Shown: positions 10,220-55,570 of the stretch, piece after piece
Layout: the number at the start of each line of letters is the position of its first letter
Numbering within the stretch: the stretch's first letter is position 1
DNA from: Centroscyllium fabricii
Taxonomy: Eukaryota
Assembly (NCBI GenBank): GCA_051313645.2
Contig: JBNRSN020000001.1
Location: 125,116,001 to 125,180,000, forward strand
Reading direction: 5' to 3'
Length of the DNA: 64,000 nt
Position numbers and translations under genes: made by a program
The notes under the pieces: model-generated
What the model saw: only the letters and a program-made list of their open reading frames with translations
Databases searched by the model: none
What the model was told of the DNA's origin: nothing

Positions 10220-12560
10220 TCTACTTGTGTGTCATCTTTCTCTTGCATGTGCTTCTACGATGTGCTACCGCTGTGGCTTCAGCAGAGGCAGAGACCGCCT
10301 GCTCACTTCCCTGTTGTGATTGCGTCGACATTCTTGGCGGAGCTCCTCGCGGTTCTGGAGGCTGTGATGGCCCCACCAATGTCTGCTCCTGTGACTGTGC
10401 AGGGACAGACATGGCCATCGCTGTCCGAGGAGGCAACTGGGGCTCTGGCTGGGGGGGGTGGCAATGGGGGAGAACTGTAAGTGCTTTGAGAGAAGCCCAC
10501 ACTTTCATGCCCCCTCTCACCATCTTCCATTTTATGGGCCACCTGCACTTACCTGTCAGCAAGGAGCTGGAGAGCACCTTGCTGCACATCAGTGGGGCCA
10601 TGAGGACCCACGTCTACGCTGACATCCCTTCTAGACAGGGGGTCTCTGAGCCTCTGTCATCTATGTTCCATAAATAGCCATCTATTCTCCGTAGAGTCCA
10701 TGTGCTCCTGTGAGTGGCACATTGGCTGCTCCATGCAGGTGGCCATCCTATCCATGGAAGGGCCTAGAGTCGCCATCACCTGCGACACGGTGGTGCTCAT
10801 GTTGGAGAGGGACTCCTCCATTCTCTGAACATTTGCAGAGATCGCAGACGTAAAACCTGTCCGAGCCCCCGGCCTTCTTCCTGCACCTCCAAGATCGCCC
10901 TCTTTCTGGATGGCCCGAGGCTCAGCGTCTGCATGGTGCTGAGCAGAGCTGGGAGTTTCCTGCGCCCTCCGGCGAGGAGTCTCCACTGCTGTCCCTGTCT
11001 CCACCTCTGCTCTTGCTTACTTGTGACAGACCCGGTGACAACACTACTCTATCTCTTGCGGGACCCACCGAGGTGTGCGTCTCTGCACTGGTACTGGGTG
11101 CACTCATGTCTGGTGACGCTGCGCCATCAGAGGCTGGAGGCTCCTCTGAGGAGTCATCTTCCTCTTCCTCCTGAACAGTGGGGGGGCGGCAGGAGGGGCT
11201 CTTGAATGGACCTGTGGGAGAGTAAAGAGATGAGTTAGATGTGCCATATGAAGAATGGGTACAGATACCATTATGCACATAATGAACATTCAGTGGCTGA
11301 TGACATCAGTCTCCGTATGAGTGACTGATGTATGCTATGTAGCTGTATGATAGCTAATTCTGTCAGCAGGTTTCTGAGATGTCCCCCTCTCTCTCTGTCT
11401 CCCACCTCCAGCTGCTTGGCCACTCCCAATACTTCCAACGCAGCCTCCTCTGCTTTTCTCTCCCTTATTGTGGGCTCCCTTTTCCTGCAAGGAAGGTAAG
11501 AAGAGAAGGTTGAGTGAGAATGATGGAATGAGTGTAAGGAATGGATGGGTTACATATTTAGAGGGAGACTGTGATGGATTGGGGTGACAATGCCAATTGG
11601 CCTCCTTGCGTGTTATTAGTTGGTATGATTGCATTAGGATGAGGGTGAGTGTGAGGGGTGGTTAGTCAGATGGGGATGTGATAATGTAGATAGAGGGATG
11701 GGTGGATGTGCAAGGTATGCTGGCGTGAGTAAGGATGTGAAGGAGTAGGGTTGGGAAGGCAGAGTGATGGGGATGTGATGAGAGGCAAAGCAGGATGAAG
11801 TTGAATGTGGCTTTGCACTCACCTTTCCTGCTCTAATGAGATCACAGAAACGTTTCCGGCACTGCACCCAGGTCCTCCTGAACACACCCTTGCTGTTCAC
11901 CTCCTCTGTAATAAGGGGCTGCCATTTCAAAACTGAGATGAGGGGGAACTTCTTTACTCAGAGGGTGGTGGGGCTGTGGAATTTGCTGCCCCAGAGAGCT
12001 GTGGAAGCTACTACGTTGAATACATTTAAAACTGAGATAGACAGTTTCCTGGAATTAAAGGGAATTAGGGGTTATGGTGAGCGGGCAGGTAAGTGGACGT
12101 GAGGCTAGGTTCAGATTGGCCATGTGATCTCCTGGACCAGTTTTCGATCACCTAGATGGGTCGGAGAGGAATTTTCCTGATTTTTTTCTCCCAAATTGGC
12201 TACTGGGTTTTTTAATCTGGTTTTTCGCCTCTCCCAGGTGATCACATGGGTCTGGGCGGGGTGGAGAGTAAAAATAAAATTGAGGTTAGGATCAGATCAG
12301 CCATGATCTTGTTGAATGGCGGAGCAGGCTCGAAAAGCCGATTGGCCTACTCCTGCTCCTATTTCTTATGTTCTTATGTAATTTGGAGCCAGGCTCTTTC
12401 TGTCTCCTGGGGAGGTCTCTTCTGCCCATTTGAAGGGAAGAGGACATCCCTGCGTGCTCTGACTCCCTCCCCAAGCATATGGAGAGTCATTGGGGAACCT
12501 GGGTGCAGTCCCCTGCCTCTGTGCAGTTATGTCTCCAAGTGTTTGGAGCAATCAAAGCAT
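10220..12560 (-). pseudogene. Harbinger Myb/SANT-like DNA-binding protein remnant, apparently spliced, interrupted by a CR1 insertion
   Basis: TAPRFPNDS... then EEVNSKGVFRRTWVQCRKRFCDLIRAGK|gtgagt (trihelix motif followed by a donor), then an acidic/low-complexity C-terminal part. Confidence 0.7.
11911..12378 (+). mobile_element. CR1 3' fragment with double tail, inserted in the Harbinger Myb gene
   Basis: IRGCHFKTEMRGNFFTQRVVGLWNLLPQRAVEA (CR1 ORF2 end). Flanked by a probable TSD TGTAAT. Confidence 0.8.
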
Positions 12561-15099: not shown

Positions 15100-18000
15100 A
15101 GTCTCTCAGGAGGCTTCACATGTCTTGAGGATCCTCTGATTGATTGTCCTTGAATCTGAGTTGTTGCCTCAGATGATGTATTCTCAGCTGTGTAATCAGG
15201 TTGTTCAACAGTATCAGTCTTTCATCCTGCTGTGGCTTGTGCCATGAGAAGATCCCACTGATTTCTTCTGGCTGAATGGTGTATGATCTTGGTTGGACTT
15301 CACTAAGGACAGTTCCCTTCTGAGTCCATATGTTTGTTTTGTCTTTGAGCCTTACTTGGTCAACAGAGTGGAGTTCAGGTAGGTTTTATGTTCCTCTGTC
15401 AAAGTAGTATTTTTGCTTAACTTTCTGTTGTTCTTTCAACTTCCTCACTTTCTCCCCCTCTTATGCTTTGAGGAGGTTCTCCGGGATGGGTAGGTTTGAT
15501 CTTAGCATACATCCGATAAGGAGTTGGGCTGGTGACATACCACACTCGAGCGGCGTTGTGCGGTATACCAACATGCTCTGGTAGAAGTCAGTTCCACTGT
15601 TTTTTGCCTTGTACATCAGTCTTTTCACTGTCTGGACCAATTTTTCTACTAGTCCATTGGAGTGTGGAAAATGAGGACTTTATGTTGTGTGGACAAAGTC
15701 CCACTCTTTGGCAAAGTGTCGGAAACTTGAATTGCAAAACTGGAGTCCATTGTCTGCGAAGACCTCGCTTGCCATGCCATGTCTGGAGAAGATGGCTTTC
15801 ATACATGTTATCACAGCATCTGCAGTGGTGGTGTACAGTCTACAAACCTTTGGATACAGGGAGTAATAGTCTGTGACTACAAGATAGTCCTTCCCTTGAC
15901 ATACGAATAGGTCAGCGCCTACCTTCTGGTAAGGTCGGTCGGTGCTGGGTGTGGCTTTAATGGTTCTGCAGGATTGCTTGCTTGATATTTCCGGCATATT
16001 GTGCAGTTTGACAGCTCATTTTGTCACATCATGGTTGATTCGTGGCCAGTACATCACCTCTCGTGCTCTTTTCTTACACTTTTTGATTCCCAGATATCCT
16101 TCATGGATCCTTTTTAGTATCTCTTTTCTGAGACTCTTTGGGATAACTATTTTACTTCCTTTGCAGATGATGTCTTCGACCACTGATAGTTCCGCCCTGC
16201 AGTTCCAATACTCTGCAATGTCAGATGAGCAGTCTTGCTTCATGTTGGGCCATCCATCCAAGATGTTTTTTTCTCAGTTGTTTCAGTGTTTCATCTTTGT
16301 TTGTCTCAATCTTTATGAGCTCCATTTTTGCATCTGCTATCGGCAGTGCACTTGTGATCATGTCCACGTAGGCGTTCACGTCTTCATCCATTTTGGTGTT
16401 TGCGGGCTCCCTTGGGTCAACAGCTCCAGACAACTTGGCTGCTGTGTACATGAGCTTATCCGGAGTGTATGCAACAGTCAGTGTATAGCATTGCAGCCTG
16501 ATCATCATTCTTTGTATTCTAAGCAGACAGACATTTTGTGGCTTTTGGAACAATGCAATCAAGGTCTTATGGTCAGTCTCTACACTGATTGCTTGTCCTG
16601 ACACAAACTAGTGAAATCTTTCACAGGCCTTTGTGATGCTGAGCAGCTCCTTTTCTATTTGAGCATATCGCCTCTGTCATTGAGCACGATGCATATGCAA
16701 TAGGTTCCCAGTCATCATATTTTTGCGGAAGAACGGCAGCGAGCCCACTCTGTGATGCGTCTGATGATATCTTGATGGGTCTCACTGGGTCATAAAACCT
16801 CAGAACTGGTTCCTCTGTGAACAGTTTCTTTAGTTCGCTCCATGACTTCTCATGCTCATGATTCCACTCCCATTCTATGTTTTTTTCAGTTAGTCTTCTC
16901 AGTGGCGCCATCTTTTCTGAGAGGTTGGATATGAATTTACCCATGTAGTTGATCATTCCATTAAACCTCTGCATGTCTCTTTTGCATTGTGACCTTGGCA
17001 TATTCCCAATGGCGGACACCTTTCTGGGATCTGGTCTGATGCCCCCACTGCTAAGGATCTCTCCCACAAATGTCAGTTCTGTCACCCCGAGCTGGCATTT
17101 CTCTCTATTCAGCTTCAGGTTTGTTTTCCTTGCTGCTTCCAGCACTTTTTTCAGTCTCTCATCATGCTCATTTCACGTGGTTCCCCATGCTATGATGTCA
17201 TCCATTGAGGTATCAACTCCCTCCAGGTGCTCATAGACCAAATGGATAGTTTTGTGATGCACTTCAGGAGCTGAGGCAATGCCATATGGTAACCTTAGGA
17301 ATCTGTATCTGCCAAATGGACTATTGAACGTGGACAGTCTTGAACTTGCCTCATCCATTTTCAACTGCCAAATCCTGATGAAGCATCTAACTTGCTGAAA
17401 TACTTTGCATTTGCAAACTGTGACATGATTTCCTCATGCATTGGAAGCTTGAAGTGCTCTCTCTTTATTGCTCTGTTTAGATCTCTTGGATCCAGGCAAA
17501 TTCTGAGCTTTCCATTCTTTTTGTCCACAATGACGAGTGAACTCACCTACTCAGTTGGCTCATTCATCTTCTGCATCACGTTCCGGCTTTCCATCCTGTC
17601 CAACTCTGTCTTCAGCTGCTTTTGAAGAACAAATGGATTTTTTCTGCATGGATGTATTATCGGTGGCACACTTTTATCCACTCTGATCGTGTGTTCTCCT
17701 GGAAGGCAGCCTAGACCCTGAAATAGGTAATTGTACTATTTCATGAGTTCATCATAGACTGTTTCTCCTCTGCTTTCCACAACGAGGACTCATTTTACCA
17801 AGTTCAGTCTCTCACAGGCTATTAAGCCTAGTATGGCCTGCACATCCTTTGGCACCACGATGAATGCTAGCATGTGCTCTGTCCTTTTGTGTCACTTTGA
17901 CAATGTATTTTCCTTGCACTGGTATATCAGTACCTGAGTATCCTGTCACTTTAACTTTTATTCCATGTATCTTTGGTTTGGGTCTAACTTTCTTAAAATC

Positions 18001-19329
18001 AGTCTCTGATATCACATTAACTTGTGCTCCAGTATCCAATTTAAATGAAATGTGTATGTCATTCACTTTTAATGTCAACATCCAGTCTTTTTTCTTTTCA
18101 GACACAACGTCCACATAGAACTCCTCTATCTCCCTTTCATCTACTGCATGGATCTTGCTTTGTTGCACTTGGTTCTTACAGCAACGGGCATAATGGTTGT
18201 TTTTGTTGAAACTATTGCATGTTTTACCATATGCTGGACACTTTTTTGGTAGCTGTTGTGTATCACATTGACTACATGGCTTTCGATTGCCCCTTCCATT
18301 TTCGTTTACTGACCACGCCTCTTTTTTCACATTGGCGCTCTTTTTTTGAAACGGTTTGTGTCCGTTCTTTCTCACTGCATCCACGTTGCAGCTACTGTCA
18401 CTGAACAGCTCCTTTGCCTGCGACTTCACAGTCTCTTTAGCCCTACAGAATGCTATGGCTTTTCCCAGGTCTAGATTTTGCTCTCTTAGCAGTCTTTCCC
18501 TTAGACTATTATATGGAATACCACACACAAGTCTGTCTTTTATCAGTGAGTCTGTCAGTCCACCAAAATCACACGTTTTGCTTCTGGTTCTCAGTTCAGT
18601 CACATACTGATCAATAGTTTCTCCCATTTTCTGTACACGTGAGAAATCTGTGCCTCTCAAACATCACGTTACATAGAAACATAGAAGATAGGAGCAGGAG
18701 TCGGCTATTCGGCTCTTCCAGCCTGCTCCGCCATTCACTGAGATCATGGCTGATCATCCAAACCCAGCACCCCGCCCCTGCCCTCTCCCCATGTCCCTAT
18801 CGAGCCTACACCGACACATATCCCACCCTATCCACGTAACCCCACATATTCAATCCCCCTAACACTAAGGGTCAATTTATCATGGCCAATCAACCTAACC
18901 CGCACATCTTTGGACTGTGGGAGGAAACCGGAGCACCCGGAGGAAACCCATGCAGACACGGGGAGAATGTGCAAACTCCACACAGATAGTACCTGAGGCT
19001 GGATTTGAACCCGGGTCTCCAGAGCTGTGAGGCAACAGTGCAAACCACTATGCCACCATACCTTACGTTTAGGTATGCAGTATGCCTCAATCGGTTCCAT
19101 TATTTTATCCAGCTTCATTTTGTCTCCATCAGCAGCGAATGTGAGGTTATTATACACCTCCAGCGCTTCATTACCCATGACATGTAATAACAGACGCTTG
19201 CATTATATCACTTTTCTCGTCAGCTCTAATTGCCGCTAAATACAACTCAAAACGTTGTTTGAACCTGTTCCAATTTTCAGCCACATTACCTGTCAACTGA
19301 AGTTTTGCCGGTAGGTGTAGCCCTTCCAT
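15100..19329 (-). pseudogene. Gypsy gag-pol remnant
   Basis: Gag start MEGLHLPAKLQLTGNVAENWNRFKQRF at 19329. Zn knuckle KCPAYGKTCNS, protease KLDTGAQVN, RT LRICLDPRDLN / FSKLDASSG / SMDDII, RNaseH SSDASQSGL, integrase PYQKVGADLF / ADNGLQF. Many frameshifts. Confidence 0.9.
18671..19062 (-). mobile_element. HE1-like V-SINE inserted in Gypsy gag
   Basis: tRNA head, V-domain and CR1-type tail. ACGTT repeated on both sides. Interrupts the gag frame. Confidence 0.9.
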
Positions 19330-21200: not shown

Positions 21201-21930
21201 TAAGTAATAAGTAATAAGTAAATTTTATTGTCACATAAGCGAACAGAATTCAGTGAAATGCGTACTGCCAATTCCACACGTGCTACACGTCAACCAACAA
21301 CAAAAGAACATAAGATACAAAGCACGCCCGGAACCCGCAAGACGTCAAGCCATTCTCCGGCGCCATCATTGAGGGTCCGCTAATGCTCCGGCTCTTTAAT
21401 TCGATGTTGTTAATCTTCTTCCTTTACTGCAATACACTGCTGAATCGAGGATCTTGATGGTTACGGGACTAAATTCCCGCACTCCGTGAGTGAAGAATGG
21501 AGTCCAGTGCCCGACCTTCAGTCCAAGAACAGACCCAACGAACTGCCAGAACTCCCGCACTCCGGGAGTTAAGATTGAATTCCTGCTGACCGACCATCGG
21601 CCCGAGGACAATGAACCGCCGAATCGCCGAACTCCAGTATTTTGGTAGCGAAGAATAGGAAGCCTGATTTCCAACCTTCATCCTGAGAACGGGCCCAGCT
21701 GATCTACCAGCTCCCACACCTCCGGACTGAAGAAAGGACGGTCCAGGACCTAACCTTCGGCTCGAGAATGGGCCCAGCTGATCCATGGTCTCCTGCACCT
21801 AGGGAATGAAGAAACGGCCGTCCGAGGCCTAACCTTCGGCTTGAGAATGGGCCCAGCTGAACTACCAGCTCCCGCACCTCGGAGTGAAGAAACGCCAGTC
21901 CTTGGCCGGTTGCTGATACACTCCCGTTTA
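21201..21930 (-). mobile_element. Non-coding retroposon-like insert with a Rex1/Babar-like tail and internal 79-bp repeats
   Basis: Minus strand ends ...TGTGACAATAAAATT(TACTTAT)n. CpG-rich body. GGGCCCAGCTGA recurs at 21691, 21770 and 21849. Confidence 0.5.
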
Positions 21931-29273: not shown

Positions 29274-31763
29274 ATGTACCTGCATATTTTGATTTTCCTC
29301 TTACTCTGGACTGGAGCTCTGACCTTGAAGAATTTGAAATACACGATCCTGGAAGAACAAGGGCCCGGGACCGTGATCGGGAACATTGCAAAAGATGCTA
29401 GCCTGGCGACCAGTCCCGAGCAGAGGAAGCCCAACTTTCGGGTTTTGGAAAATTCCGCCCCGCATTTGCTGGACGTCGATCGGGAAAGCGGGCTGCTTTA
29501 CACCAAACAACGCATCGACCGGGAGACCGTCTGCAAACGGGCTGCCAAGTGTGTCGTCTCGCTGGAAGTGTTCGCCAACGACAAGGAGCTGTGCATGATC
29601 AAAGTGGAGATCCTGGATATCAATGATAATGCGCCCAGTTTTGCCAGCGAGCAGATCGATGTGGAAATCCCCGAGAACGCGGCTCCGGGGACGCGCATCC
29701 CGCTGACCAGCGCCCACGACCCGGACACCGGCCAGTTCGGCCTGCAGACCTACCACCTGAGCAGCCCCAACCGGCTGTTCGGCCTGGAGGTGAAGTCGCG
29801 GGGCGACGGCACCAAGTTCCCCGAGCTGGTGATCCAGAGGCCGCTGGACCGGGAGGAGCAGCCCCGCCATGTGCTGCTGGTGACGGCGCTGGACGGCGGC
29901 GACCCCCCCAAGTCGGGCGCGGTGCAGGTGAGGGTGGAGGTGGTGGACACCAACGACAACAGCCCGTCCTTCCAGGAGCCCAGCCTGACGGTGGAGCTGA
30001 CGGAGAACTCGCCGCTCGGCACCTTCCTCATCCAGGTGAACGCCAGCGACCCGGACGAGGGCAGCAACGGCGAGGTGGTCTACTCCTTCAGCCCGTACGT
30101 GGCCGACAGGATCCGCCAGCTCTTCTCCATCGAGCCCCGCTCCGGGGTGATCAGGGTCCAGGGCAACGTGGACTATGAGGAGAGCAGCATCTACGAGATC
30201 GACGTGCAGGCCAAGGACTTGGGTCCCAACTCCATCCCGGCTCACTGCAAAGTGTCGGTGCGGGTCCTCGACCTCAACGACAACGCGCCGGCCCTGAGCC
30301 TGGTGTCGGTGCAGCAGGGCTCGATCGGCGAGGCGGCGCCGCCCGGCACCGTCATCGCCCTGGTCAAAGTCACCGACCGCGACTTCGGCCGCAACGGCCA
30401 GCTGCAGTGCCGGGTGCTGGGCTCGGCGCCCTTCCGGCTGGAGGAGAACTACGACAACTTCTACACCGTGCTGACCGAGCGGCCGCTCGACCGGGAGGTG
30501 GCCGACCTGTACAACCTGACCATCGTGGCCCGGGACCAGGGCTCACCGCCGCTCAACGCCAGCCGCTCCTTCAGCGTGCGGGTGGCGGACGAGAACGACA
30601 ACCCGCCCCGCTTCACCAAGCCGGTGTACCTGCTGCAGGTGCCCGAGAACAACATCCCCGGCGAGTACCTGGGCTCGGTGCTGGCCCACGACCCCGACCT
30701 GGGCGCCAACGGCAGCGTCTCCTACTCCATCCTGCCGTCCCGGGTGGGCGATGTCTCCATCTACACCTACGTGTCGGTCAACCCGGCCAACGGCGCCATC
30801 TACGCGCTGCGATCCTTCAACCACGAGCAGACCAAGTCCTTCCAGTTCCGCGTCTTGGCCAAGGACGCGGGCACGCCGCACCAGCTGGAGAGCAACTCCA
30901 CGGTGCGGGTCAGCGTGCTGGACCTCAACGACAACGCGCCGGTCATCGTGCTGCCGGTGCTGCACAACGACACGGCCGAGATCCAGGTGCCGCGCAACGC
31001 CGGCCTGGGCTACCTGGTGGCCACCGTGCGGGCTCTGGACAGCGACTACGGCGAGAGCGGCCGCCTGTCCTACCAGATCGCCGAGGGCAACGAGCTGCAC
31101 CTCTTCGACATGGACCCGGCCAGCGGCGAGATCCGCACGGCTCAGCAGCCCCTGTGGGAGGATCTGGCCCCCGCCGCCGAGCTGGTGGTCAAGGTGTCGG
31201 ACCACGGCAAGCCCTCGCTGTCGGCCGTGGCCCGCCTGGTCATCGTGGCTTACCTGGGGGCCGGGCCCCCTCCCCAGGACGAGCAGCGGCTCAACAAGGA
31301 GCAGTCCCGCCACTGGGACCTGTCGCTGCCCCTGATCGTCACCCTCAGCTCCATCTCAGTCATCCTGCTGACCTCCATGGTCACCATCGCCGTCAAGTGC
31401 AGGAGGGAGAACAAGGAGATCAGGACCTACAACTGCCGGATCGCCGAGTACTCGCACCCCCACCTGGGCAAGAGCAGCAGCAAGAAAAAGAAAATCAACA
31501 AGAACGACATCATGTTGGTCCAGAGCGAAGTGGAGGAGAGAGATGTCATGAACGTGGTGAGCAGTCCCTCCCTGGCCTCTTCTCCCGTTTATTTCGATTA
31601 CCAGACGCGCCTGCCGCTCAGCTCCCCCCGGTCAGAAGTCATGTACCTGAAGCCCACCTCCAACAACCTCACCGTCCCCCAGGGCCATGTGGTCTGTCAC
31701 ACTTTCTCCGGACAGGGTTCAAATCCGAGCGACGTAACGTCAACGAGAATGTCACTGATTCAG
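29274..31763 (+). CDS. PCDH17: Protocadherin-17 coding exon 1 (signal peptide, 6 cadherin repeats, TM, proximal cytoplasmic tail; 830 codons)
   Basis: MYLHILIFLLLWTGALTLKNLKY..., SLEVFANDKELCMIKVEI, KSRGDGTKFPELVIQ, WDLSLPLIVTLS and KCRRENKEIRTYNCRIAEYSHP match recalled PCDH17 rather than PCDH19. Phase-0 donor CAG|GTAAAA at 31763/31764. Confidence 0.96.
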
Positions 31764-34604: not shown

Positions 34605-37600
34605 ACCGAGTGTTTGTTTAATTAGCTCTGGTTTTACCTGTCATACGAGTAGAACGCACAGTCGACAACAGTGGTACACCAACTTTATTCTGCTGTGTGA
34701 TCTTTGTTATCCACTCAACTTTGCCATTTAACTGGAGGTGATCCAGTTTCCCTCCATCATAGAATAGATGACATATCACAGAATTATCTCCATTTGATTC
34801 ATCCTGGAGGTATTTTATTTAAATCTATGTAGCTTTGTGCTGATGAAAGGGGTAAAATGCTGTATATCCACCATTAGCAAAGCAATCCTAAGAAAGAAAG
34901 AGAAAGGACTTGTATTTATATCGCACCTTCCACAACCTCAGGATTTCCCAAAGCACTTTAGAGCCACTTGAAGTGTAGTTACTGTTGCAATGTACGAAAA
35001 GCGGCAGCCAATTTGCACACAGTAAGGTCCCACGAACAACAGTGAGATAACGACTAGATAATCTAGAAAACATCACCTCTTTAAAAAAGATGATGAATTC
35101 AGTGAACAGTTTCACTAATAATTACTACTTAAGAACCAAATATACATGCAAATAGATGAGGAATATTGTTACAAACATGTGAGTTTACAATTCATGAATG
35201 AGGGTTGCACAGTCAGTAAGTCGGGCAGGTTGCAGTTTCAGTACTTGGTTGTTGCAATTCAAAATGATGAAAAGTGACTTCCACCCAACTTTATAAAATT
35301 TTCTTTTTTTTCATTACTTCTCTATAAGCCCATGGTCACGCAAAGCACAATTCTGCTAAATCAACATCATGTTTCTGCAGTATATTCAATATTCCGGAGT
35401 AACCGTAATAGTAACTCTTGTCAGGATTCATTGGAAACATTTTCAATATAGATTTGGTTATAGAGACAGCAGAATGACCATCGTGGTATTTTATTGTAAC
35501 TTCTACATGATATTTTGAGCATGCACACATATTTTCTGTTACAGAAAAATTGAATACAGATAATGCGGTAAGACAACAGATCAGAAAAAAATGGACACAT
35601 GGTCCCTTTCAGTCAGAAAACAAGCTCAGATTCAACAGTCTTTTTTTCCTCTCATGAGAAGTCAGTGTGAGAGAAACCCCCAGTCAGTGAGAGACCCCCC
35701 AGTCAGTGAGAGACCCCCAGTCAGTGAGAGACCCCCAGTCAGTGAGAGACCCCCAGTCAGTGAGAGACCCCCAGTCAGTGAGAGAGCCCCAGTCAGTGAG
35801 AGACCCCCAGTCAGCGAGAGACCCCCAGTCAGTGAGAGATCCCCCAGTCAGTGAGAGACCCCCCAGTCAGTGAGAGACGCCCAGTCAGTGAGAGACCCCC
35901 CAGTCAGTGAGAGACCCGCCAGTCAGTGTGAGACCCCCCAGTCAGTGAGAGATCCCCAGTCAGTGTGAGACCCCCCAGTCAGTGAGAGACCCCCCAGTCA
36001 GTGAGAGACCCCTCCAGTCAGAGAGACCCCCCGAGTCAGAGAGACCCCCCAAGTCAGAGAGACCCCCCGAGTCAGTGAGACCCCTCCAGTCAGTGAGACC
36101 CCTCCAGTCAGTGAGATCCCCCCAGTCAGTGAGATAGCCCCCAGTCAGTGCGAGACCCCCCCAGTCAGGGCGAGACTCCCCCAGTCAGTGAGAGACCCCC
36201 CCAGTCAGTGAGAGACCCCCAGTCAGTGAGAACCCCAGTCAATGTGAGACCCCCCAGTCAGTGAGAGACCCCTCCAGTTAGTGAGAGACCCCAGTCAGTG
36301 AGAGAGCCCCCAGTCAGTGAGATCCCTCCAGTCAGTGTGAGACCCCCCAGTCAGTGAGAGACCCCCAGTCAGTGAGAGACCCCCAGTCAGTGAGAACCCC
36401 AGTCAATGTGAGACCCCCCAGTCAGTGAGAGACCCCTCCAGTTAGTGAGAGACCCCAGTCAGTGAGAGACCCACCAGTCAGTGAGAGAACCCCCGTCAGC
36501 GAGAGACCCTCCAGTCAGCGAGAGAGCCCCCAGTCAGTGAGATCCCTCCAGTCAGTGTGATACCCCCCAGTCAGGGCGAGACCCCCCCCCAGTCAGGGCG
36601 AGACCCCCCCAGTCAGTGAGAGAGCCCCCAGTCAGTGAGAGACCCGCCAGTCAGTGTGAGACCCCCAGTCAGTGTGAGACCCCTCCAGTCAGTGTGAGAC
36701 CCCTCCAGTCAGTGTGAGACCCACCCAGTCAGTGTGAGATCCCAGTCAGTGTGAGACCCCCCGTCAGTGAGAGAGACCCCCAGTCAATGTGAGACCCCAG
36801 TCAGTGTGAGACCCCCCCATCAGTGAGAGACCCCCATCAGTGAGAGACCCCCTGTCAGTGAGAGACCCCCCTGTCAGTGAGAGACCACCCAGTCAGTGAG
36901 AGACCCCCATCAGTGAGAGACCCCCCATCAGTGAGAGACCCCCCCAGTCAGTGAGAGACCCCCCCAGTCAGTGAGAGACTCCCCAGTCAGTGAGACCCCC
37001 CCAGTCAGTGAGAGACCCCCCAGTCAGTGAGAGATCCCCCGTCAGTGAGACCCCCCAGTCAATGTGAGACCCCAGTCAGTGTGAGACCCGCAGTCAGTGT
37101 GAGACCTCCCAACAGTGAGAGATTCCCCGTCAGTGAGAGACCCCCCCCAGTCAGTGTGAAACCCCCAGTCAGTGTGAGACCCCCCTGTCAGTGTGAGACC
37201 CCATATCAATGTGAGACCCCCCAGTCAGTGTGAGACCCCCCCCCCAGTCAGTGTGAAACCCCCCACATGGTCCCTTTCAGTCAGAAAATAAGCTCAGATT
37301 CAACACTGTCTTTTTTTCCACTCATGAGAAGTCAGTGTGAGAGAAACTCCCAGCCAGTGAGAGACCCCCCAGTCAGTGAGAGACCCCCCAGTCAGTGAGA
37401 GACGCCCAGTCAGTGAGAGACGCCCAGTCAGTGAGAGACCCCCCAGTCAGTGAGAGACCCCCCAGTCAGTGAGAGAGCCCCCAGTCAGTGAGAGACGCCC
37501 AGTCAGTGAGAGACCCCCCAGTCAGTGAGAGACCCCCAGTCAGTGAGAGACCCGCCAATCAGTGTGAGACCCCCCAGTCAGTGTGAGACCCCCCAGTCAG

Positions 37601-37964
37601 TGTGAGAACCCCCAGTCAGTGAGAGACCCCCCCCCAGTCAGTGAGAGACCCCCCAGTCAGTGTGAGACCCGACAATCAGTGTGAGACCCCCCAGTCGGTG
37701 TGAGATCCCGCAGTCAGTGAGAGGCCCCCAGTCAGTGAGAGACCCTCCAGTCAGAGAGACCCCCCGAGTCAGTGAGACCCCCAGTCAGTGAGAAAGCCCC
37801 AGTCAGTGAGAGACCCCCCAGTCAGTGAGAGACCCCCCAGTCAGTGAGAGACCCCCCAGTCAGTGAAAGCCCCCCCAGTCAGTGTGAGACCCCCCAGTCA
37901 GTGAGAGACCCCCCAGTCAGTGAGAGACCGCCAGTCAGTGTGAGACCCCCCCAGTCAGTGAGAG

Positions 37965-38614
37965 ACCTGACCATGGTGAAAGATAGCAAACTGAGAAAAA
38001 CCCTGACAATGTACAGACTTACCGAGCGCAGCCTAGCCATCGAAAAAGGCAGACACAGAAAGACTTGGCTGCCCAGAGAGGAAAGGCTGTGCTCCCACTG
38101 CAGTCAGGGAGCAGTGGAGACAGAGCTGCACATCCTCACAACTTGCGAAAACTATCAGGAAATAAGGGGAAATTTCTTCCCAAAATTTGCAACAACATGC
38201 CCTGAATTCAAAAATCTGAACGACCATCAAAAACTCCCATATCTATTAGGGGAACAGAGGGACTTTATAAAATTAGCGGCAAACTACGTCACAGCTTGCC
38301 ATAAGCAGAGGGACAACCAGTGACCATTGAAGCTAGGAAGAGCCTACAAGATCTATATGCGGGTATATATGTATGTGTTTGCATAGCTATTCATTCAATA
38401 CATCTGGTTATGCATTTATATGTCCACTTGTATATGTTCTTTTTAGATCTATATGCGGGTTTTTATGTGTATGTGTATGCATAGTTATTCATTCAATACG
38501 TCTGGTTATGCATTTGTATGTCCAACTGTATATGTTCTTTTTCTGTGCGTTGGCAACATAGGATGTATCTTGTCATGCCAATAAAGCAATTTGAATTGAA
38601 TTGAATTGAATTGA
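37965..38614 (+). mobile_element. RTE-X-like non-LTR retrotransposon, 5'-truncated copy 1
   Basis: LAIEKGRHRKTWLPREERLCSHC...ETELH...C (C-terminal CCHC), AATAAA and (TTGAA)n tail. Confidence 0.8.
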
Positions 38615-40142
38615 GAGACCCCCCCAGTCAATGTGAGACCCCCCAGTCAGTGAGAGACACCCCAGTCAGCGAGAGAAGCCCCAGTCAGTGAGAGACCCCC
38701 CAGTCAGTGTGAGACCCCCCAGTCAGTGAGAGACCCCCCCAGTCAGTGAGAGACCCCCAGTCAGTGAGAGACCCCCCTGTCAGTGAGAGACCCCCCAGTC
38801 AGTGTGAGAACCCCCAGTCAGTGTGAGACCCCCCAGTCAGTGAGAGACCCCCCAGTCAGTGAGAGACCCCTCCAGTCAGAGAGACACCCCAAGTCAGTGA
38901 GACCTCCCAGTCAGTAAGATCCCCCAGTCAGTGAGAGACCCCCCAGTCAGTGAGAGACCCCCCAGTTAGTGAGAGACCCCCCAGTCAGTGAGAGACCCCC
39001 CAGTCAGTGAGAGACCTCCCAGTCAGTGAGATCCCTCCAGTCAGTGTGAGACCACCCAGTCAGGGTGAGGCCCCCCAGGCAGGGCGAGACCCCCCAGTCA
39101 GTGAGCGAGCCCCCAGTCATTGAGAGACCCGCCAGTCAGTGAGAGACCCGCCAGTCAGTGTGACACCACTAGTCAGCGAGAGACCCCCAGTCAGCGAGAG
39201 ACCCCCCAGTCAGCGAGAGACCCCCCAGTCAGAGAGAGACCCCCCGTCAGTGAGAGAGACCCCCAGTCAATGTGAGACCCCAGTCAGTGTGAGACCCCTC
39301 CAGTCAGTGAGAGACCCCCCGTCAGTGAGAGACCCTGCATCAGTGAGAGACCCCCATCAGTGAGAGACCCCACAATCAATGTGAGACCCCAGTCAGTGTA
39401 GGACCCCCCTGTCAGTGTGAGACCCCCCTGTCAGTGTGAGACCCCCCTGTCAGTGTGAGAACCCCCATCAGTGTGAGACCCCCCTAGTCAGTGTGAGACC
39501 CCCCTAGTCAGTGTGAGACCCCCTAGTCAGTGTGAGACCCCCCCAATCAGTGTGAAACCCCCCAATCAGTGTGAAACCCCCCAGTCAGTGAGAGACCCCC
39601 CATCAGTGAGAGACCCCCCTGTCAGTGTGAGACCCCCCAGTCAGTGAGAGACCCCCTGTCAGTGAGAGACCCCCCAGTCAGTGAGAGACCCCAGTCAGTT
39701 TGAGATCCCCCAGTCAGTGAGAGACCCCAGTCAGTTTGAGACCCCCCAGTCAGTGAGAGACCCCCCAGTCAGTTTGAGACCCCCCAGTCATTGAGAGACC
39801 CTCCAGTCAGTGAGAGACCCTCCAGTCAGTGTGAGACCCCCCAGTCAGTGTGAGATCCCCCCAGTCAGTGAGAGATCCCCCCGTCAGTGAGAGAGCCCCC
39901 AGTCAGTTTGAGACCCCCCAGTCAGTGAGAGACCCCCAGTCAGTGAGAGGCCCCCCAGTCAGTGAGAGACCCCAGTCAGTGCGAGACCCCCCCAGTCAGT
40001 GCGAGACCCCCCCATCAGTGAGAACCCCCCCAGTCAGTGTGAGACCCCCCCAGTAAGTATGAGACCCCCCCACCCAGTCAGTGTGAGACCCCCCCAGTCA
40101 GTGTGAGACCCCTCAGTCAGTGAGAGACCCCCATCAGTGAGT

Positions 40143-41228
40143 TTTGGATCAAAATTTTTAATTCAGTAATTGAACCAATTGCACTTTATGGCAGCGAGGT
40201 GTGGGGTCTGCTAACACACCACGTATTTGCAAAATGGGACAAACACCCAATTGAGACCCTACATGCTGATTTCTGTAAGAGTATCCTCCGGACTCAGAGG
40301 AAATCCACACACAATGCATGCAGGTCAGAGTTAGGCCAATATCCACTATTAAATAAATCCAAAAAAGAGCAATCAAATTCTGGAAACATCTAAAACTGAG
40401 CAACCCCCACAGCTATCACTACAAAGCCCTGAAATGCCAAGAAGCGAACATAAAGAGAAGTCCCCTCAGCCAACTAGTCCTGGGACTTAGCGGAGTAACT
40501 ACTAACACTACTGGTAACAACCAGCCCCAGGACAGTGACATCCTAGCACTCAGAATCTGACCCAACACAATTATTACTAAACAAAAAGAAAAATACTTGA
40601 ATTACTGGACAGAAATGACAAAAACCCAAAACAAACTAGATTGTTATTTGGCCCTAAACAGACAGTACACCATGGCTGATTACCTGACCATGGTGAAAGA
40701 TAGCAAACTGAGAAAAACCCTGACAATGTACAGACTTAGCGAGCACAGCCTAGCCATCGAAAAAGGCAGACACAGAAAGACTTGGCTGCCCAGAGAAGAA
40801 AGGCTGTGCTCCCACTGCAATCAGGAAGTGGTGGAGACAGAGCTGCACTTCCTCACAACTTGCGAAAACTATCAGGGAATAAGGGGAAATTTCTTCCCAA
40901 AATTTGCAACAACATGCCCTGAATTCAAAAATTTGAACGACCATCAAAAACTCCCATATCTATTGGGGGAACAGAGGGACTGTATAAAATTAGCGGCAAA
41001 CTACGTCACAGCTTGCCATAAGCAGAGGGACAACCAGTGACCATTGAAGCTAGGAAGAGCATACAAGATCTATATGCGGGTATATATGTATGTGTTTGCA
41101 TAGTTATTCATTCAATACGTCTGGTTATGCATTTGTATGTCCAATTGTATATGTTCTTTTTCTGTGCTTTGGCAACATAGGATGTATCTTGTCATGCCAA
41201 TAAAGCAATTTGAATTGAATTGAATTGA
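40143..41228 (+). mobile_element. RTE-X-like non-LTR retrotransposon, 5'-truncated copy 2
   Basis: Same C-terminal ORF (40597-41040) and (TTGAA)n tail; extends further 5' than copy 1. Confidence 0.8.
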
Positions 41229-42159
41229 GAGACCCCCCCCCCAGTCAGTATGAGACCCCCCCAGTCAGTGTGAGACCCACCGTCAGTGAGAGAGCCACCA
41301 GTCAGTGAGAGACCCCCCCATTAGTGAGAGATTCCCCGGTCAGTGTGATTCCCCCCAGTCATTGAGAGACCCTCCAGTCAGTGAGAGACCCTCCAGTCAG
41401 TGTGAGACCCCCCAGTCAGTGTGAGATCCCCCCAGTCAGTGAGAGACCCCCCAGTCAGTGAGAGACCCCCCAGTCAGTGAGAGACCCCCCAGTCAGTTTG
41501 AGACCCCCCAGTCAGTGAGAGACCCCCAGTCAGTGAGAGACCCCCCAGTCAGTGAGAGACCCCCAGTCAGTGAGACCTCAGTCAGTGCGAGACCCCCCCA
41601 GTCATTGCGAGACCCCCCATCAGTGAGAACCCCCCCCAGTCAGTGTGAGACCCCCCAGTCAGTGTGAGACCCCCCCCAGTCAGTGCGAGACCCCTCAGTC
41701 AGTGAGAGACCCCCCCAGTCAGTGTGAGATGCCCCAGTCAGTGAGACCCCCCCAGTCAGATTGAGACCCACCGTCAGTGAGAGACCCCCCCATTAGTGAG
41801 AGATTCCCCAGTCAGTGTGATTCCCCCCAGTCAGTGAGAGACTCTCCTAATCAGTGAGAGACTCTCCTAGTCAGTGAGAGACCCCCCAGTCAGTGAGGGA
41901 CTCCCCAGTCAGTGTGAGACCCCCAGTCATTGAGAGACCCCCCAGTCAGAGAGAGACTCCCCAGTCAGTGTGAGACCCCCAGTCAGTGTGAGACCCCCCA
42001 GTCAGTGAAAGACCCCCCAGTCAGTGAGAGACCCCCAGTCAGTGGGAGACCCCCCAGTCAGTGAAAGACCCCCGTCAGTGGGAGACCCCCCAGTCAGTGA
42101 GAGTCCCCCCAGTCTTGGAGTGACCCCCCAGTCTGAGAGAAACTACCACCAGTTAGTTA

Positions 42160-44884
42160 GAAGAATTTCTGCCTGCTTTATAGATTTCCAAAAGGCTATC
42201 GATTCTATTTGGCACGACGGTCTATTCTTAAAACTTATTGAAAGTGGGGTAGGGGGAAAATCATATTCTGTAATTAAATCAATGTATACAGGCATTAAAT
42301 GTGCAGTTAAAATCAGAGACAAACAAACAAAATATTTCTCACGGGTGTGGCGTGGTGCAGGGCTCGTCTAGCTTCCCGACTCTTTTTAATATTTATATAA
42401 ATGAATTGGCAAAACTACTTCAACAATCTACAGCACCTGGCCTCGCTATATATGACTCCAAGGTTAAATTCCTCCTCCATGCAGATGACCTGGTTCTGCT
42501 CTCACCAACAGAAGAGGGCCTACAGCAGAACTTTGATCGGCTAGAGTCATTCTGCCAGACCTGGGCCCTGACAATGAACCCCCAAAAAACTAAAGTTCTT
42601 GCATTCCAGCAAAGATCCAGACATCAGGGAACCAAAACAAACTTCACACTGGAGAAACTAAAATTGAACAAACTACAAATTACACATACTTAGGCTTAAA
42701 AATCAGTTTCACGGGAAATTCTCACTTGGCTGTGAATGAACTGAAAGAGAAAGCAAAAAGGGCTTTCTATGCCATTAAAAAGTCAATCCAAATAGAAATT
42801 CCAATTGGCATTTGGCTCAAAATTTTTAAATTAGTAATTGAACCAATCGCACTTTATGGCAGTGAGGTGTGAGGTCCGCTAACACAACACAAATGAGCAA
42901 AATGGGACAAACATCCAATTGAGACCCTACATGCAGAATTCTGTAAAAGTATCCTCTGGACTCAGAGGTAAACCACAAACAATGCATGCAGGGCAGAGTT
43001 AGGCCAATATCCACTTTTAATTAATATCCAAAAAAGAGCCATCAAACTTTGGAAACATCTAAAAATAAGCAACCACCACTGCTATCACTACAAAACCCTG
43101 AAATGCCAAGAGGCGAACATAAAGAAAAGTCCCCTCAGTCAACTGGCCCTGGGACTCAGTAAAGTAACTTTGAACACTATTGGTAACAACCAGCCCGAGG
43201 ACAGTGACATCCTAAGCACACAGAATTCGACCCAACACAATTATTGGGCCCTGTTTTCCTGTGCTCCAGAAGAGCTGCACCCCCACGAAGGGGGGTCAGA
43301 AATGCCTCGTGGGGGTGCAGCTCGGGTGATTACCAGAAATGTGAATTTCCTGTGCTGATGGGCAAGGGGCTTCAGCTTCCTACCCAGGAAGACTTTGAGC
43401 TGCCGATTTCCTGTAGTCAGCTGCTCAAAATGCGTGTGTATCACGTGGGCAAGTCTCTCTTGAGCTGCACATTTAAAAAGCAGTCTTAGAGGTGCTGCAG
43501 GCAGCTTTGAGAAGTGGAGAAACACGTTTAAAGGTAAGTTTTTTTTTGATTCCTTTGCAGATATTTGTCTGTAGTCTTTCAGCTTTTAAATGGTAGGGTT
43601 TTTTTTTTTGTTGGTGAAAGTGAAAAAAAAACGGGTTTTTAACGCGATGTCAGCAGCTCTGGTGGCCATCACAGCTGCTTAATTCACGTTAAAAACCCGA
43701 TTTTTTTTCACTTCCACCAAAAAAAAACCCCTACCCATTTAAAAGCTGAAAGACCACAGACAAATATCTGCAAAGGAATCAAAAAAAAACTTACCTTTAA
43801 ACGTGTTTTTTTCACTTCCACCAAAAAAAAACCCTAACAGCAGAAAAGGCAGAAACTTAAAAAAAACAAGGTGCTTCCTAGAAACTTAAAAAAAACAAGG
43901 TGCTTCCTAGAAACTTAAAAAAAACAAGGTGCTTCCTAGAAACTTAAAAAAAACAAGGTGCTTCCTACCCGATATTCTTTGCCCTGAGGCTGATTCTGTG
44001 CTTTGTGCGGGGGGAAAGCCGACCTCAGTGGGCGTGGCCTGCTCACAACCTACGCACAAAGCACCACGCACCAAAAAAAAACAGACCCCTACGCAGCAAA
44101 AAAACCTGGCATTTTCCACAGGAAATTGCCGTCAGAAAAAAAATAATAATTACGTGTGCGTGCGCCGCGGGTGCACGTGAGCGCGCACCTGCAGCAATCG
44201 GGCCACAAGAAAACAGGGCCCATTACTAAACAAAGAGAAAAATATTTGTCATATTGGACAGAAATGACAAAAACCCAAAACAAACTAGATTGTTATTTGG
44301 CCCTAAACAGACCATACACCATGGCTGATTACCTGACCATGGTGAAAGATAGCAAACTGAGAAAAATCCTGACAATGTACAGACTTAGTGAGCATAACCT
44401 AGCCATTGAAAAAGGCAGACACAAACAGACCTGACTGCCCAGAGAGGAAAGGCTCTGCTCTCACTCCAGTCAGGGAGTGGTGGAGACAGAGCTGCATTTC
44501 CTGACAACTTGTGAAAACTATCAGGACATAAAGGGGAATTTCTACACAAAATTCATAAAAACATGCCCTGAATTCAAAAATTTGAACGACCACCAAAAAC
44601 TCCCATATCTATTGGGGAAACAGAGGAACTGTATAAAATTAGCGGCAAACTATGTCACAGCTTGCCATAAGCAGAGGGACAACTAGTGACCATTGAATCT
44701 AAGAAAAGATTATATGAGTATTATATGTGTGTATATATATATATATGTATACATGAGTATATTTGTCCATTCACTGTATGTATATATCTGCGTTTGCATG
44801 TTCAATTGTATATGTTCTTTTTATGTGCTTTGGCAACATAAGATGTATCTTGTCATGCCAATAAAGCAATTTGAATTGAATTGA
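42160..44884 (+). mobile_element. RTE-X-like non-LTR retrotransposon, copy 3 (includes RT domain; interrupted by a MITE)
   Basis: ACFIDFQKAIDSIWHDGL, GVVQGSSSFPTLFNIYINEL, LLHADDLVLLS, CCHC end and (TTGAA)n tail. Confidence 0.85.
43246..44221. mobile_element. 976-bp MITE, probably PIF/Harbinger-type, with an internal long palindrome
   Basis: TIRs GGGCCCTGTTTTC(C/T)TGTG, TSD ATT (43243-43245, 44222-44224). The empty site is seen in copy 2 at 40561-40580. Confidence 0.9.
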
Positions 44885-46709
44885 GTCCCCTCCAGTCATT
44901 GAGAGAGCCCCCAGTCAGCGAGAGACCCCCCAAGTCAGTGTGAGAGACACCCAATCAGTGAGAGACCCCCCAGTCAGTGAGAGACCCCCCAAGTCAGTGT
45001 GAGAGATCCCCAGTCAGTGAGAGACCCCCCAGTCAGTGTGAGACCCCCCAGTTAGTGTGAGACCCCCCAGTCAGCGAGAGACCCCCCAGTCAGCGAGAGA
45101 CCCCCCAGTCAGCGTGAGACCACCCAGTCAGTGTGAGACCCCCAGTCAGTGTGAGACCCCCCAGGTCAGTGAGAGAGCCCCAGTCAATGTGAGATCCCCC
45201 AGTCATTGAGAGACCCCCCAGTAAGTGTGAGACCCCCCAGTCAGTGAGTGATCCCCCCATCAGTGAGAGACCCCACGTCAGTGAGAGAACCCCCAGTCAG
45301 TGTGAGACCACAGTCAGTGAGAGACCCCCCCAGTCAGTGAGAGACCCCCCAGTCAGTGTGAGACCCCAGTCAGTGAGAGACCCCCCAGTGTGTGAGAGAC
45401 CACCCCAGTCAGTGAGAGACCCCCCCCCAGTCAGTGAGAGACCCCCCAGTCAGTGAGACCCCCGTCAATGAGAACCCCACAGTCAGTGAAAGACCCCCCT
45501 GTCAGTGTGAGACCCCCCAGTCAGTGAGAGACCCCCCCATCAGTGATAGACCCCCCGTCAGTGAGAGACTCCCCACCAGTCAGTATGAGACCCCCCAGTC
45601 AGTGAGAGACTTCCCAGTCAGTGAGAGACCCCCCAGTCAGTGAGAGACCCCCCAGTCAGTGAGAGACCCCACAGTCAGTGAGAGATCCTCCCAGTCAGTG
45701 CGAGACACCCCAGTCAGTGCGAGACCCCCCAATCAGTCAGACCCCCCGCAGTCAGTATGAAATCTCCCCCTCCCGCCCCCAGGCAGTGTGATGCGTCCCC
45801 TCCATCAGTCAGGGAAGGAGGTGAGATGCTCCCTCAGGTTGTGAGATCTTGCCCCCACGCAGTGGAATTTCCCCAGTTAGTGTGACTCCACCCTTGTGCA
45901 GTGAGACCCCGCCCACCAGACAATGTGAGGTCCCCCTCCCCTAGGCAGGGCGAGACCTCCCACCCAGGTAGTAAGATCCTATCGCCCCACATACAGTCAG
46001 ATTCCCCTCTTCCTGCCTGTGTGTCTATTGTTAACAGAGGAGCATGGGTTGGGGGAGGTGGTGGGAACGGGGGTGGCTGTTGCTGGGTGGGGGTGGGGCA
46101 CGAATATCATCGGATGGGGGCAGAGCATATCAGGGGCTAGAGGAGCATTGGGAGGAGGCAAACAACATTGGGGGGGCCAGAGGAGCAAGGGGGGGGGGGG
46201 GCAGTCCAGAGCACAACAGGGGCTGAAGGAACATGGGGGTGGTGCGTGGCAGCCTCATGGGGGGAAACTGGAGGCCTGGGAGCAGGAGATCAGAGGCCTC
46301 ATGGCAGGGTGTCTCTTATCACAGTGGGTGGGTTAGGCAGGGCTGCTGGATCCAGGAGGTAAGTGCAAAGACAATTACCTCCTGGACTCAGCAGTCCTCA
46401 CCTTACTTTAGCTGGCAGGTTTTATGAGGCCTGCAAAACCCGACCAGCCACTGTTAAATTTAAAACGATGGTTAAATCTGAGGTACGCCAGCCTCATTAC
46501 AATATTTAAATGGATGACCCGCATCCTAGGAGCCCAACCAGTCATCTCGCCTCCCATTTAAACTGGAAGTAGGCAGGTTCTGGTTGGAATTAAGATTTTT
46601 AACACTAATTTCCCACTCGATCCAACCCACCCGTTTTTTGGGGGTTAAAATTCCCCCCATATGTGAATTAAAATGTCTACCAGGTGAGCAGAGCTCTACA
46701 GATGTGTTT

Positions 46710-49495: not shown

Positions 49496-50373
49496 CAGGT
49501 ACACAATCCTTTATCCGCAACTCCAAAAACCGAAATGCTCCAAAAACCGAAATCCCGCGTTGCGCCAAAATAACCATTTTTTTCTTAAATAAATTGAAGG
49601 AAGTGACCAGCTGCAGCAGAAAAAAATCAGAAAAAATATGTTTTTACCTTAATGCCGTGCTGTTGTTAGCTCGGCAAATGCGACCTATGTCATTGACATG
49701 TTGCTTAACCTCAATTTCATTGTTCACTGTCATTATCGACACCAAACTGGTATTCGGTCAAATTGCCTTCTCCAGTCCCTTTAAATCAACAAGCCCGTTG
49801 GTCTTCACGGGCAAATAGGGCACTTGAAAACCCTCAGTCTCAAGCATGCGGCATGAATCCAGGACGCACTTGTGTTCTGTCTGGGTTGTGATGACGTGCT
49901 TCTTTTTAGCTTTGTAAAACCTTGCAACACCCTTGATGGTGACATTGTTGGACTCTGTAGCACTGCTGGTGAAGATGATTTCTCTGTAGTCTGCTCCGAC
50001 CAGGTGAGCTGTTTGCTTTCTCACTTTCTCCACTGCTGCCTCGCTCTCCCAGCCATACGCATGCATTCTTGAATGAAGATTGCCTTAGGAATTGACCAGA
50101 TAGGGGAGCATTGTGTCCAACACTCTGGGATCCAGTTGTGTTGTAGCCTGAACGGCCGATCTCCAAAGGGCCGATCTCCCCTCTAAACGGCCGATCTCCT
50201 GCTCCAAACGGCCGATATGCCGTTCCCCGACTGCAAGCTGGGCCGTAAACATGGCAATGCGCATGCGCATGCGATCTGCGCATGCGCACTGGGGCCAACT
50301 CTAAAAACCGTATTTATCCGAAAACCGAGACCCACCCGGTCCCGAGGTTTTCGGATAAAGGGTTGTGTACCTG
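49496..50373. mobile_element. 878-bp Tc1/mariner (pogo/Tigger-like) non-autonomous TIR element carrying a host gene fragment
   Basis: 22-bp TIRs CAGGTACACAA(T/C)CCTTTATCCG (one mismatch), flanked by TA at 49494-49495 and 50374-50375. Confidence 0.88.
49664..50153 (-). pseudogene. NFS1: Intronless internal fragment of cysteine desulfurase NFS1 (two in-frame stops, no frameshift)
   Basis: [41 protein letters not shown]...[13 protein letters not shown]...[17 protein letters not shown]...AI*PNTSLVSIMTVNNEI...IGRIC. Confidence 0.93.
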
Positions 50374-55511: not shown

Positions 55512-55570
55512 ACAGACAATTTTCCCGCAGAGCCCAATTACATGGGCAGCAGGCAGCAGTTTGTTCAAAG
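55512..55570 (+). CDS. PCDH17: PCDH17 coding exon 2 (59 bp)
   Basis: ttcacag|ACA... encodes TDNFPAEPNYMGSRQQFVQS; donor AG|gtaagt. Phase fits exons 1 and 3. Confidence 0.95.

Follow-up and report, generated by a model that had tools for sequence, protein, structure and literature searches.

Three same-strand insertions of an RTE-X-like retrotransposon in a minisatellite suggest a loose preference for GAGAG-type motifs

A 64,000-nucleotide stretch of Centroscyllium fabricii DNA (contig JBNRSN020000001.1, positions 125,116,001 to 125,180,000, forward strand; hereafter the window) includes, in the first intron of a PCDH17-like protocadherin gene, a minisatellite. This array holds three copies of one RTE-X-like retrotransposon family lacking long terminal repeats (non-LTR), all on the + strand and all with their (TTGAA)n tails joined to the TGAG of the repeat unit. 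An earlier sequence-only reading had reported this arrangement, and all its coordinates checked out. We found that the pattern is probably explained by a loose GAGAG preference of a fish long interspersed nuclear element (LINE) resembling the RTE group, which met an array rich in that motif. Judged from the sequence comparisons below, this would most likely be a preference, neither strict nor minisatellite-specific targeting.

The family was present at three places only in the window, as determined by blastn with the copies and by a scan for the tail, and tblastn with four full-length relatives returned the same three places. The array makes up 5,577 of the 59,543 bases that are not element sequence, and all three insertions would fall in it by chance with P=0.0008, a value not corrected for how the window was chosen. 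The 3' junctions read TTGA|GAGACCCC in copies 1 and 2 (38614 and 41228) and TTGA|GTCCCC in copy 3 (44884), where the unit was a variant with TGAG followed by TCCCC; tail and target overlapped by 2-3 bases at all three. The 5' junctions lay at unit positions 8-13. The 5' truncation points differed as previously described (Table 1; that of copy 3 is known to within a few bases), and the ACC microhomology with the unit at the 5' junction of copy 1 was likewise confirmed. Target duplications measured 3-9 bp for copy 1, 1-4 bp (G to TGAG) for copy 2, and 1-5 bp with one mismatch for copy 3, and were fixed only modulo whole units except in copy 2. Short target duplications, 5' truncation and a 3' repeat tail are features of non-LTR retrotransposons with an apurinic/apyrimidinic endonuclease (APE), and all were present here. 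All three copies ended in a TTGGCA/TGCCAA stem, AATAAA and (TTGAA)2-4. In the stem, 2 of 14 pairs were changed on both sides; the outer part was invariant and thus uninformative by covariation. Copies 1 and 2 differed by 3.5% substitutions over 480 bp. Copy 3, the longest and most decayed, had a diverged 3' untranslated region (UTR); it differed from copy 2 by 8.8% substitutions over 479 bp, with 88.5% identity over 435 bp further upstream. All three copies are dead and probably have no function; each runs sense to the host intron with its AATAAA. A 98-bp duplication in copy 1, a miniature inverted-repeat transposable element (MITE) in copy 3 and two block duplications of the array had been overlooked before.

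Motif counts in the window indicated what may select the site. TGA occurred 262 times on the + and 284 times on the - strand within the array and 2230 times outside it, so it predicts neither clustering nor orientation. The probability of finding three of three insertions in the array on the + strand rose with motif length, from 0.001 for TGA to 0.035 for TGAG, 0.23 for TGAGA, 0.51 for TGAGAG and 0.74 for TGAGAGA. Within the window, 144 of the 180 TGAGAG sites were in the array, all on the + strand. Because the pattern becomes ordinary with the longer motifs, a purine-rich motif of 5-7 bases explains both clustering and direction without recognition of the satellite. The sequence-only reading had proposed targeting of (T)GAGAGA, with priming through TGA microhomology and the minisatellite itself as the target. 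A preference for a (T)GAGAG-type motif held up, whereas strict specificity did not; pairing of tail and target at the 3' junction was supported, but TGA failed as a selector of the site. The minisatellite as such was not supported as the target: a short motif suffices for the pattern, and the flanks of relatives are (GA)n or unrelated. That reading had also noted the absence of CR1, L2 and SINEs (short interspersed nuclear elements) from the array, which is true but not significant: 26 segments of other repeats lay outside, 2.7 were expected inside and none was found there (P(0)=0.07). This line of evidence was dropped. The further proposal that the satellite serves as a safe haven also gained no support; all three copies, each with an AATAAA, are oriented in sense to the host intron.

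We further investigated flanks of relatives beyond the window. A scan of bacterial assemblies for the tail pattern gave four matches (L001-L004), of which L001 and L003 were chance tail matches with no upstream similarity and were dropped. L002 (507 bp) and L004 (323 bp), tiny contigs with a coverage of about 1 in two bacterial assemblies, carried the element 3' end and are presumably foreign fish DNA. One of these two contigs, L002, had the junction TTGA|GAGTGAGATGGAGAGAG, the same as that of the window copies. A profile built on the tail as translated in antisense identified 15 proteins among 81 candidates. Serine/leucine (S/L) runs, which correspond to (GA)n behind the tail, adjoined the tail in 4 of the 15 under a fixed criterion, which required at least 5 S/L among the 8 adjacent residues, and in 6 by eye. 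Compared with a window background of 1.7%, 4/15 gave P=1e-4, or P=0.03 if the background were five times higher. Runs of glutamate/arginine (E/R), threonine/histidine (T/H), valine/cysteine (V/C) or isoleucine/tyrosine (I/Y) beside the tail were found in none of the 15 proteins. Two further library matches, P0135 and P0136, had the tail plus a GA-rich flank. At the 5' side, 59 of 150 library relatives had at least 8 residues before the truncated start, and these flanks were E/R-rich (GA on the sense strand) in 10 cases and S/L-rich in one (P=0.012). A count based on blastp (n=45) gave E/R 4, S/L 0, V/C 6 and T/H 1. These noisy data suggested that the 3' and 5' flanks of relatives indicate the same strand as the window, and would fit a preference rather than strict specificity.

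Several observations weighed against this interpretation. The flanks were read from predicted proteins, which favours stop-free repeats, includes spliced gene models and pools subfamilies, and they came from relatives 50-66% identical in genomes other than that of the window. The L004 junction, TTGAA|GAAAAAGAAG, had a flank that was purine-rich and not GA-alternating. Tail flanks were not GA-rich in 9 of the 15 proteins, and on the 3' side, taken by itself, the contrast between strands (4 versus 0) was not significant (P=0.125). Among the 59 5' flanks, 6 were V/C-rich and 1 was T/H-rich, and a strict count of alternating repeats at 66 starts gave E/R 5, S/L 0, V/C 5 and T/H 2 (E/R versus S/L, P=0.06). 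The window has only three copies, none of which keeps the endonuclease or the 5' end.

V/C runs, which correspond to (GT)n on the sense strand, preceded element fragments in P0109, P0113, P0116, P0119, P0135 and P0182, and a second subfamily preferring GT repeats may exist. Element pieces were also contained in the fish gene models P0038, P0198, P0203 and P0033 (a cadherin, PACS1, STXBP6, THAP-domain protein), probably as annotation errors or exonised inserts. Querying the proteins with the window tail in a single antisense frame gave no candidate, and blastn of the element 3' end against plasmids and phages gave no match.

A loose motif preference could operate as follows. The endonuclease, as the putative carrier of the preference, would nick the pyrimidine-rich (TCTCTC) strand, and the freed 3' end (…CTCA or …CTC) would form 2-3 base pairs with UGA/GA in the (UUGAA)n RNA tail. 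This pairing would set the register TTGA|GAG. Reverse transcription would end early, and the second strand would be cut 1-9 bases downstream. The 19-bp unit itself would not be recognised; the array would have received three insertions in one direction because most motif copies of the window lie in it, all on one strand.

A stricter version of this model is that a shark-type subfamily recognises the unit or a long TGAGAGAC motif, with nearly all insertions confined to such sites, as for Kibi and Koshi in microsatellites. We regarded this as unlikely. It would account for all three copies sharing one register within the array. Of the 123 TGAGAGAC sites in the window, 117 lie in the array, and beyond it 15-36 TGAGAG(A) and 49 GAGAGA sites carry no element. 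Specificity also seems to vary by subfamily, with GA flanks in 4 of 6 matches of the L002-type peptide and 0 of 3 of the L004 type, a grouping made post hoc. However, copy 3 is joined at a variant unit, the flanks of relatives are either plain (GA)n or unrelated sequence, and three copies cannot separate a 5-mer from an 8-mer.

We considered it just as unlikely that the endonuclease has no preference, and that the (UUGAA)n tail merely paired with a nicked or broken strand in an array that is fragile or open. Overlaps of one to several bases at 3' junctions are described as general in CR1, L2 and RTE in passages of PMC6007223, and overlaps were present at all three junctions here. But the two strands of the array do not differ in how common TGA is, and TGA is abundant elsewhere; other, far more numerous LINE and SINE families are absent from the array; and in relatives GA-rich sequence also precedes the 5' end, at which pairing with the tail is impossible. 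The (GA)n flanks of relatives share only GA with the tail. The common orientation by itself has P=0.25. Together, these points weakened tail pairing alone as an explanation relative to a loose motif preference.

Whether the three copies represent separate insertions was examined through the structure of the array, which consists of five segments separated by one unique spacer and the three element copies. Two block duplications were identified (Table 1). The left duplication copied the unique left edge (88 bp) into mid-array, and the two copies of the edge are 94% alike over 87 bp. A chain of rare units gave z=5.5, with 0 of 300 shuffles as high, by a scoring devised after the units had been inspected. 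Under two other scorings the duplication was weaker, its score being reached by 6 of 200 and 4 of 100 shuffles; the scoring behind the latter result was judged too harsh, and missed the left duplication. The first half is without copy 1 and also without about 25 units around its site, so that later insertion and later deletion are indistinguishable for copy 1. The second duplication is of the block of copy 2, which aligned with its element-free duplicate at a score of 48.1 and 4.5% substitutions; none of 200 shuffles reached this score (largest, 14.4). The same three units stand between the flanking markers across the insertion point in the empty duplicate, as expected for a clean insertion, although elsewhere in the alignment the number of units shifts by one at four positions. 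This shows that empty insertion sites can be preserved by block duplication within a minisatellite. At 45760-46000, the array grades into diverged GTGAGA/CCC-rich units, perhaps an older minisatellite seed.

The flanks of the copies were then compared. The 15 units up- and downstream of each copy matched those of the others at shuffle level in all six comparisons. The downstream markers of copy 2 recur in its empty duplicate and are missing at copy 1, so copy 1 did not arise by duplication of copy 2. When the 146 bases following each tail were scored as raw nucleotides, the positive control failed (copy 2 versus the empty duplicate, 7th percentile), and this scoring was not used. Copies 2 and 3 had 86 differences in 287 codons, with 40 at third positions versus 21 and 25 at the others. 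Of these differences 33 were synonymous, where 24.7 were expected (P=0.027), a lean expected if the copies had diverged as active elements. A Nei-Gojobori pN/pS of 0.29 overstated selection and was replaced by a null preserving the mutation spectrum. With the spectrum kept, the signal was weak, as single blocks gave P=0.055-0.058 and 0.20, and copies 1 and 2 showed no signal of selection (4 of 12, P=0.35); both results weigh against the favoured explanation. Taken together, the comparisons favoured three separate insertions derived from two or more source lineages, in agreement with the sequence-only reading, which had named origin from a single insertion by array duplication and deletion as a finding that would overturn it. 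Neither block duplication holds an element in its duplicate. We judged it least probable that one or two insertions were multiplied through duplication, deletion or ectopic exchange, be it in this array or in another one of the minisatellite. In favour of this, blocks of the array have been duplicated, copy 1 is 96.5% identical to copy 2, and the ACC overlap of copy 1 could be a deletion scar. Against it, the three copies have unrelated flanks whereas the markers of copy 2 persist in its empty duplicate, and copy 3 has a different 3' UTR along with the synonymous lean.

The identity of the element was assessed from its protein. Copy 3 matched Pfam RVT_1 (E=1.6e-15) and was 61% identical to P0001 over 103 amino acids. 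The C-terminal piece had 39 matches among 96 candidates, at 48-74% identity. Full-length relatives, 58-72% identical to the copies, encode an open reading frame 2 (ORF2) of ~1,150 amino acids with an AP endonuclease, a reverse transcriptase (RT) and a CCHC finger, and the catalytic motifs of the endonuclease are intact. Six matches or labels named Triplophysa, Cyprinus, Prochilodus, Salmo and Oncorhynchus, that is, cyprinoid, characiform and salmonid fish. All 10 full-length relatives carry the C-terminal motif RxSxHxLxxExGR…CxxC…H…C, which we take to mark RTEX/Proto2, and copies 1 and 2 have it as well. RTEX elements have a C-terminal CCHC finger and no RNase H, and the finger is not exclusive to them; RNase H was absent among the Pfam matches of five relatives. 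The zf-RVT domain scored 14 bits in P0001, below the Pfam cut-off of 27.5, and had no match in four other relatives. The C-terminus of copy 2 had no Pfam match. P0001 scored about equally on the RTs of human L1 (107 bits) and R2 (102 bits), which indicates that it is not close to L1. An Atlas comparison (0.94, 143 shared features) gave no clade name, and the nearest Atlas clusters include molluscan members (1-2 records each). Membership of the family in RTE-X is plausible from these similarities. A C-terminal tree was built from 44 pieces, comprising two window copies and 42 of 44 relatives (two short matches were left out), and covered the family's own relatives only. The window copies lay, with no strong support, near the base of the group holding all named teleost elements. 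Their distance from the carp element (~0.9) was no larger than that between carp and trout (~1.0), which is equally compatible with horizontal transfer, with a slow rate of change in sharks and with paralogous lineages of old origin.

Passages of PMC4640811 place sequence-specific elements with an AP endonuclease in the Tx1 and R1 clades. Microsatellite targeting is described, in the parts cited, for Tx1 (Kibi, Koshi) and R1 (Waldo, Mino), together with 3' overlaps as a general trait of CR1, L2 and RTE and a Tn-TA signature of RTE (PMC4640811, PMC5753468, PMC3905857, PMC7140322, PMC3812793, PMC4494074, PMC10294476, PMC6505133, PMC3747384, PMC9004415, PMC13295347, PMC12477816, PMC6007223). Kibi and Koshi are teleost Tx1 elements described as specific, whereas the present family has a loose preference, relatives below the zf-RVT cut-off, and (TTGAA)n behind a stem-loop. 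It resembles RTE elements (Bov-B, plant RTE) in its microsatellite-like 3' tail with bases matching the target start, and the cattle Bov-B tail, (CTGAA)n, is one base off. For RTE, sections of PMC6007223 and PMC13295347 propose that endonuclease and tail choose the site jointly. Unlike the Tn-TA signature, the sites here have no T stretch ~10 bases upstream and no TA at the cut, the flanks being C-run/GAGA units; target duplications are 1-9 bp versus 10 or more in RTE, and this ORF2 carries a C-terminal CCHC finger. The combination of APE, RT and C-terminal motif resembles RTEX/Proto2, with the link of the motif to these groups being our assumption. Parts of the literature report RTE-X in salmonids (PMC6505133) and as abundant in bivalves (PMC10294476), describe classifiers confusing RTEX and Proto2 (PMC10294476), and mention an SGNH esterase in ORF1 of some RTEX members (PMC3905857). 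Waldo and Mino are likewise AP-endonuclease elements in simple repeats, but are insect elements of the R1 clade with AC-type targets. The proximity of Drosophila Waldo-A/B to CA repeats is ascribed to passive accumulation in a passage of PMC3812793, and the same doubt applies here. Kojima's working rule, given in part of PMC4494074, calls an element target-specific when one sequence type makes up >20% of flanks; GA-type flanks were found in 3/3 window copies and in 4/15 (27%) to 6/15 (40%) of relatives, numbers that are few, indirect and pooled over subfamilies. No paper on the target preference of RTEX or of this tail was found in a literature search whose scope did not include Repbase Reports and subscription papers, which may well note a (GA)n link. 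A search by tail sequence returned nothing related, and six supplementary files of PMC7140322 gave no match.

A wider scenario, which we put forward only tentatively and hold to be rather doubtful, is that a fish-wide, RTEX-like lineage of the RTE group, outside Tx1 and R1, independently evolved GA-repeat targeting. The junction TTGA|GAG would have been kept from the probable shark copies to salmonid-type copies, the strength of targeting would be graded by subfamily as a living series from random to targeted, and the window lineage may have moved horizontally between cartilaginous and bony fish. If true, this would be a further independent origin of targeting. A loose preference that varies by subfamily would be useful for asking how specificity starts and what share the endonuclease and the RNA tail have in it, and would account for (GA)n markers in fish that have flanks in common.

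Table 1. Positions of the features in the window
Feature	Position	Strand	Remarks
Minisatellite, unit TCAGTGAGAGACCCCCCAG, ~19 bp	35662-45760	+	~290 units, 5,577 bp minus inserts
Left tandem duplication	first half 35596-37263, second half 37264-~39584 (holds copy 1)	+	
Copy 1	37965-38614	+	5'-truncated; last ~118 ORF2 codons (CCHC finger), 3' UTR, (TTGAA)4
Tandem duplication, 98 bp, in copy 1 3' UTR	38349-38542	+	8% diverged; absent from copies 2 and 3
Copy 2	40143-41228	+	5'-truncated; last ~290 ORF2 codons, one frameshift and one stop, (TTGAA)3
Conserved element 3' end (copy 2 shown)	41164-41228	+	TTGGCA/TGCCAA stem, AATAAA, (TTGAA)n; also in L002, L004
Element-free duplicate of the block of copy 2 (39788-40141 plus 41229-41358)	41359-41830	+	unit alignment
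Copy 3	~42160-44884	+	starts within RT domain; several stops/frameshifts; (TTGAA)2
MITE, 976 bp, non-autonomous DNA transposon	43246-44221	.	in copy 3
PCDH17-like protocadherin exon 1	29274-31763	+	protein match
Next exon of PCDH17-like gene	~55512-55570		exon-2 peptide located via a motif

The MITE has 18-bp terminal inverted repeats starting with GGGCCC, a 3-bp target duplication (ATT), and an interior with a ~310-bp palindrome and a 29-bp tandem repeat in four copies; no second copy was found in the window. We take it to be Harbinger-like, judging by the length of the target duplication and the G-rich ends. A decayed Harbinger-type transposon was observed as a DDE_Tnp_4 piece at 9189-9614 (+; E=4.8e-10) and a facing Myb/SANT-like piece at 11634-11957 (-; E=0.0025), and is a possible partner family of the MITE.

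The host gene was identified by exon 1, whose repeats 1-4 had Protocadherin-17 as top match (645 bits, versus 541 for PCDH19 and 465 for PCDH10). An NFS1-like cysteine desulfurase coding fragment (49758-50084, -; Aminotran_5, E=1.8e-22), probably a processed pseudogene, lies in the protocadherin intron. Outside the array, the window contains CR1/L2-like fragments and SINE-like repeats, a repeat content resembling that of sharks or rays. A broken Gypsy-type LTR retrotransposon at ~15600-19200 (-) has gag/protease, RT-RNase H and integrase-like pieces, and a SINE-like repeat near 18670-19060 is inserted into it. A tandem repeat with a 79-bp period and about 2.8-5 copies was observed at 21472-21907.

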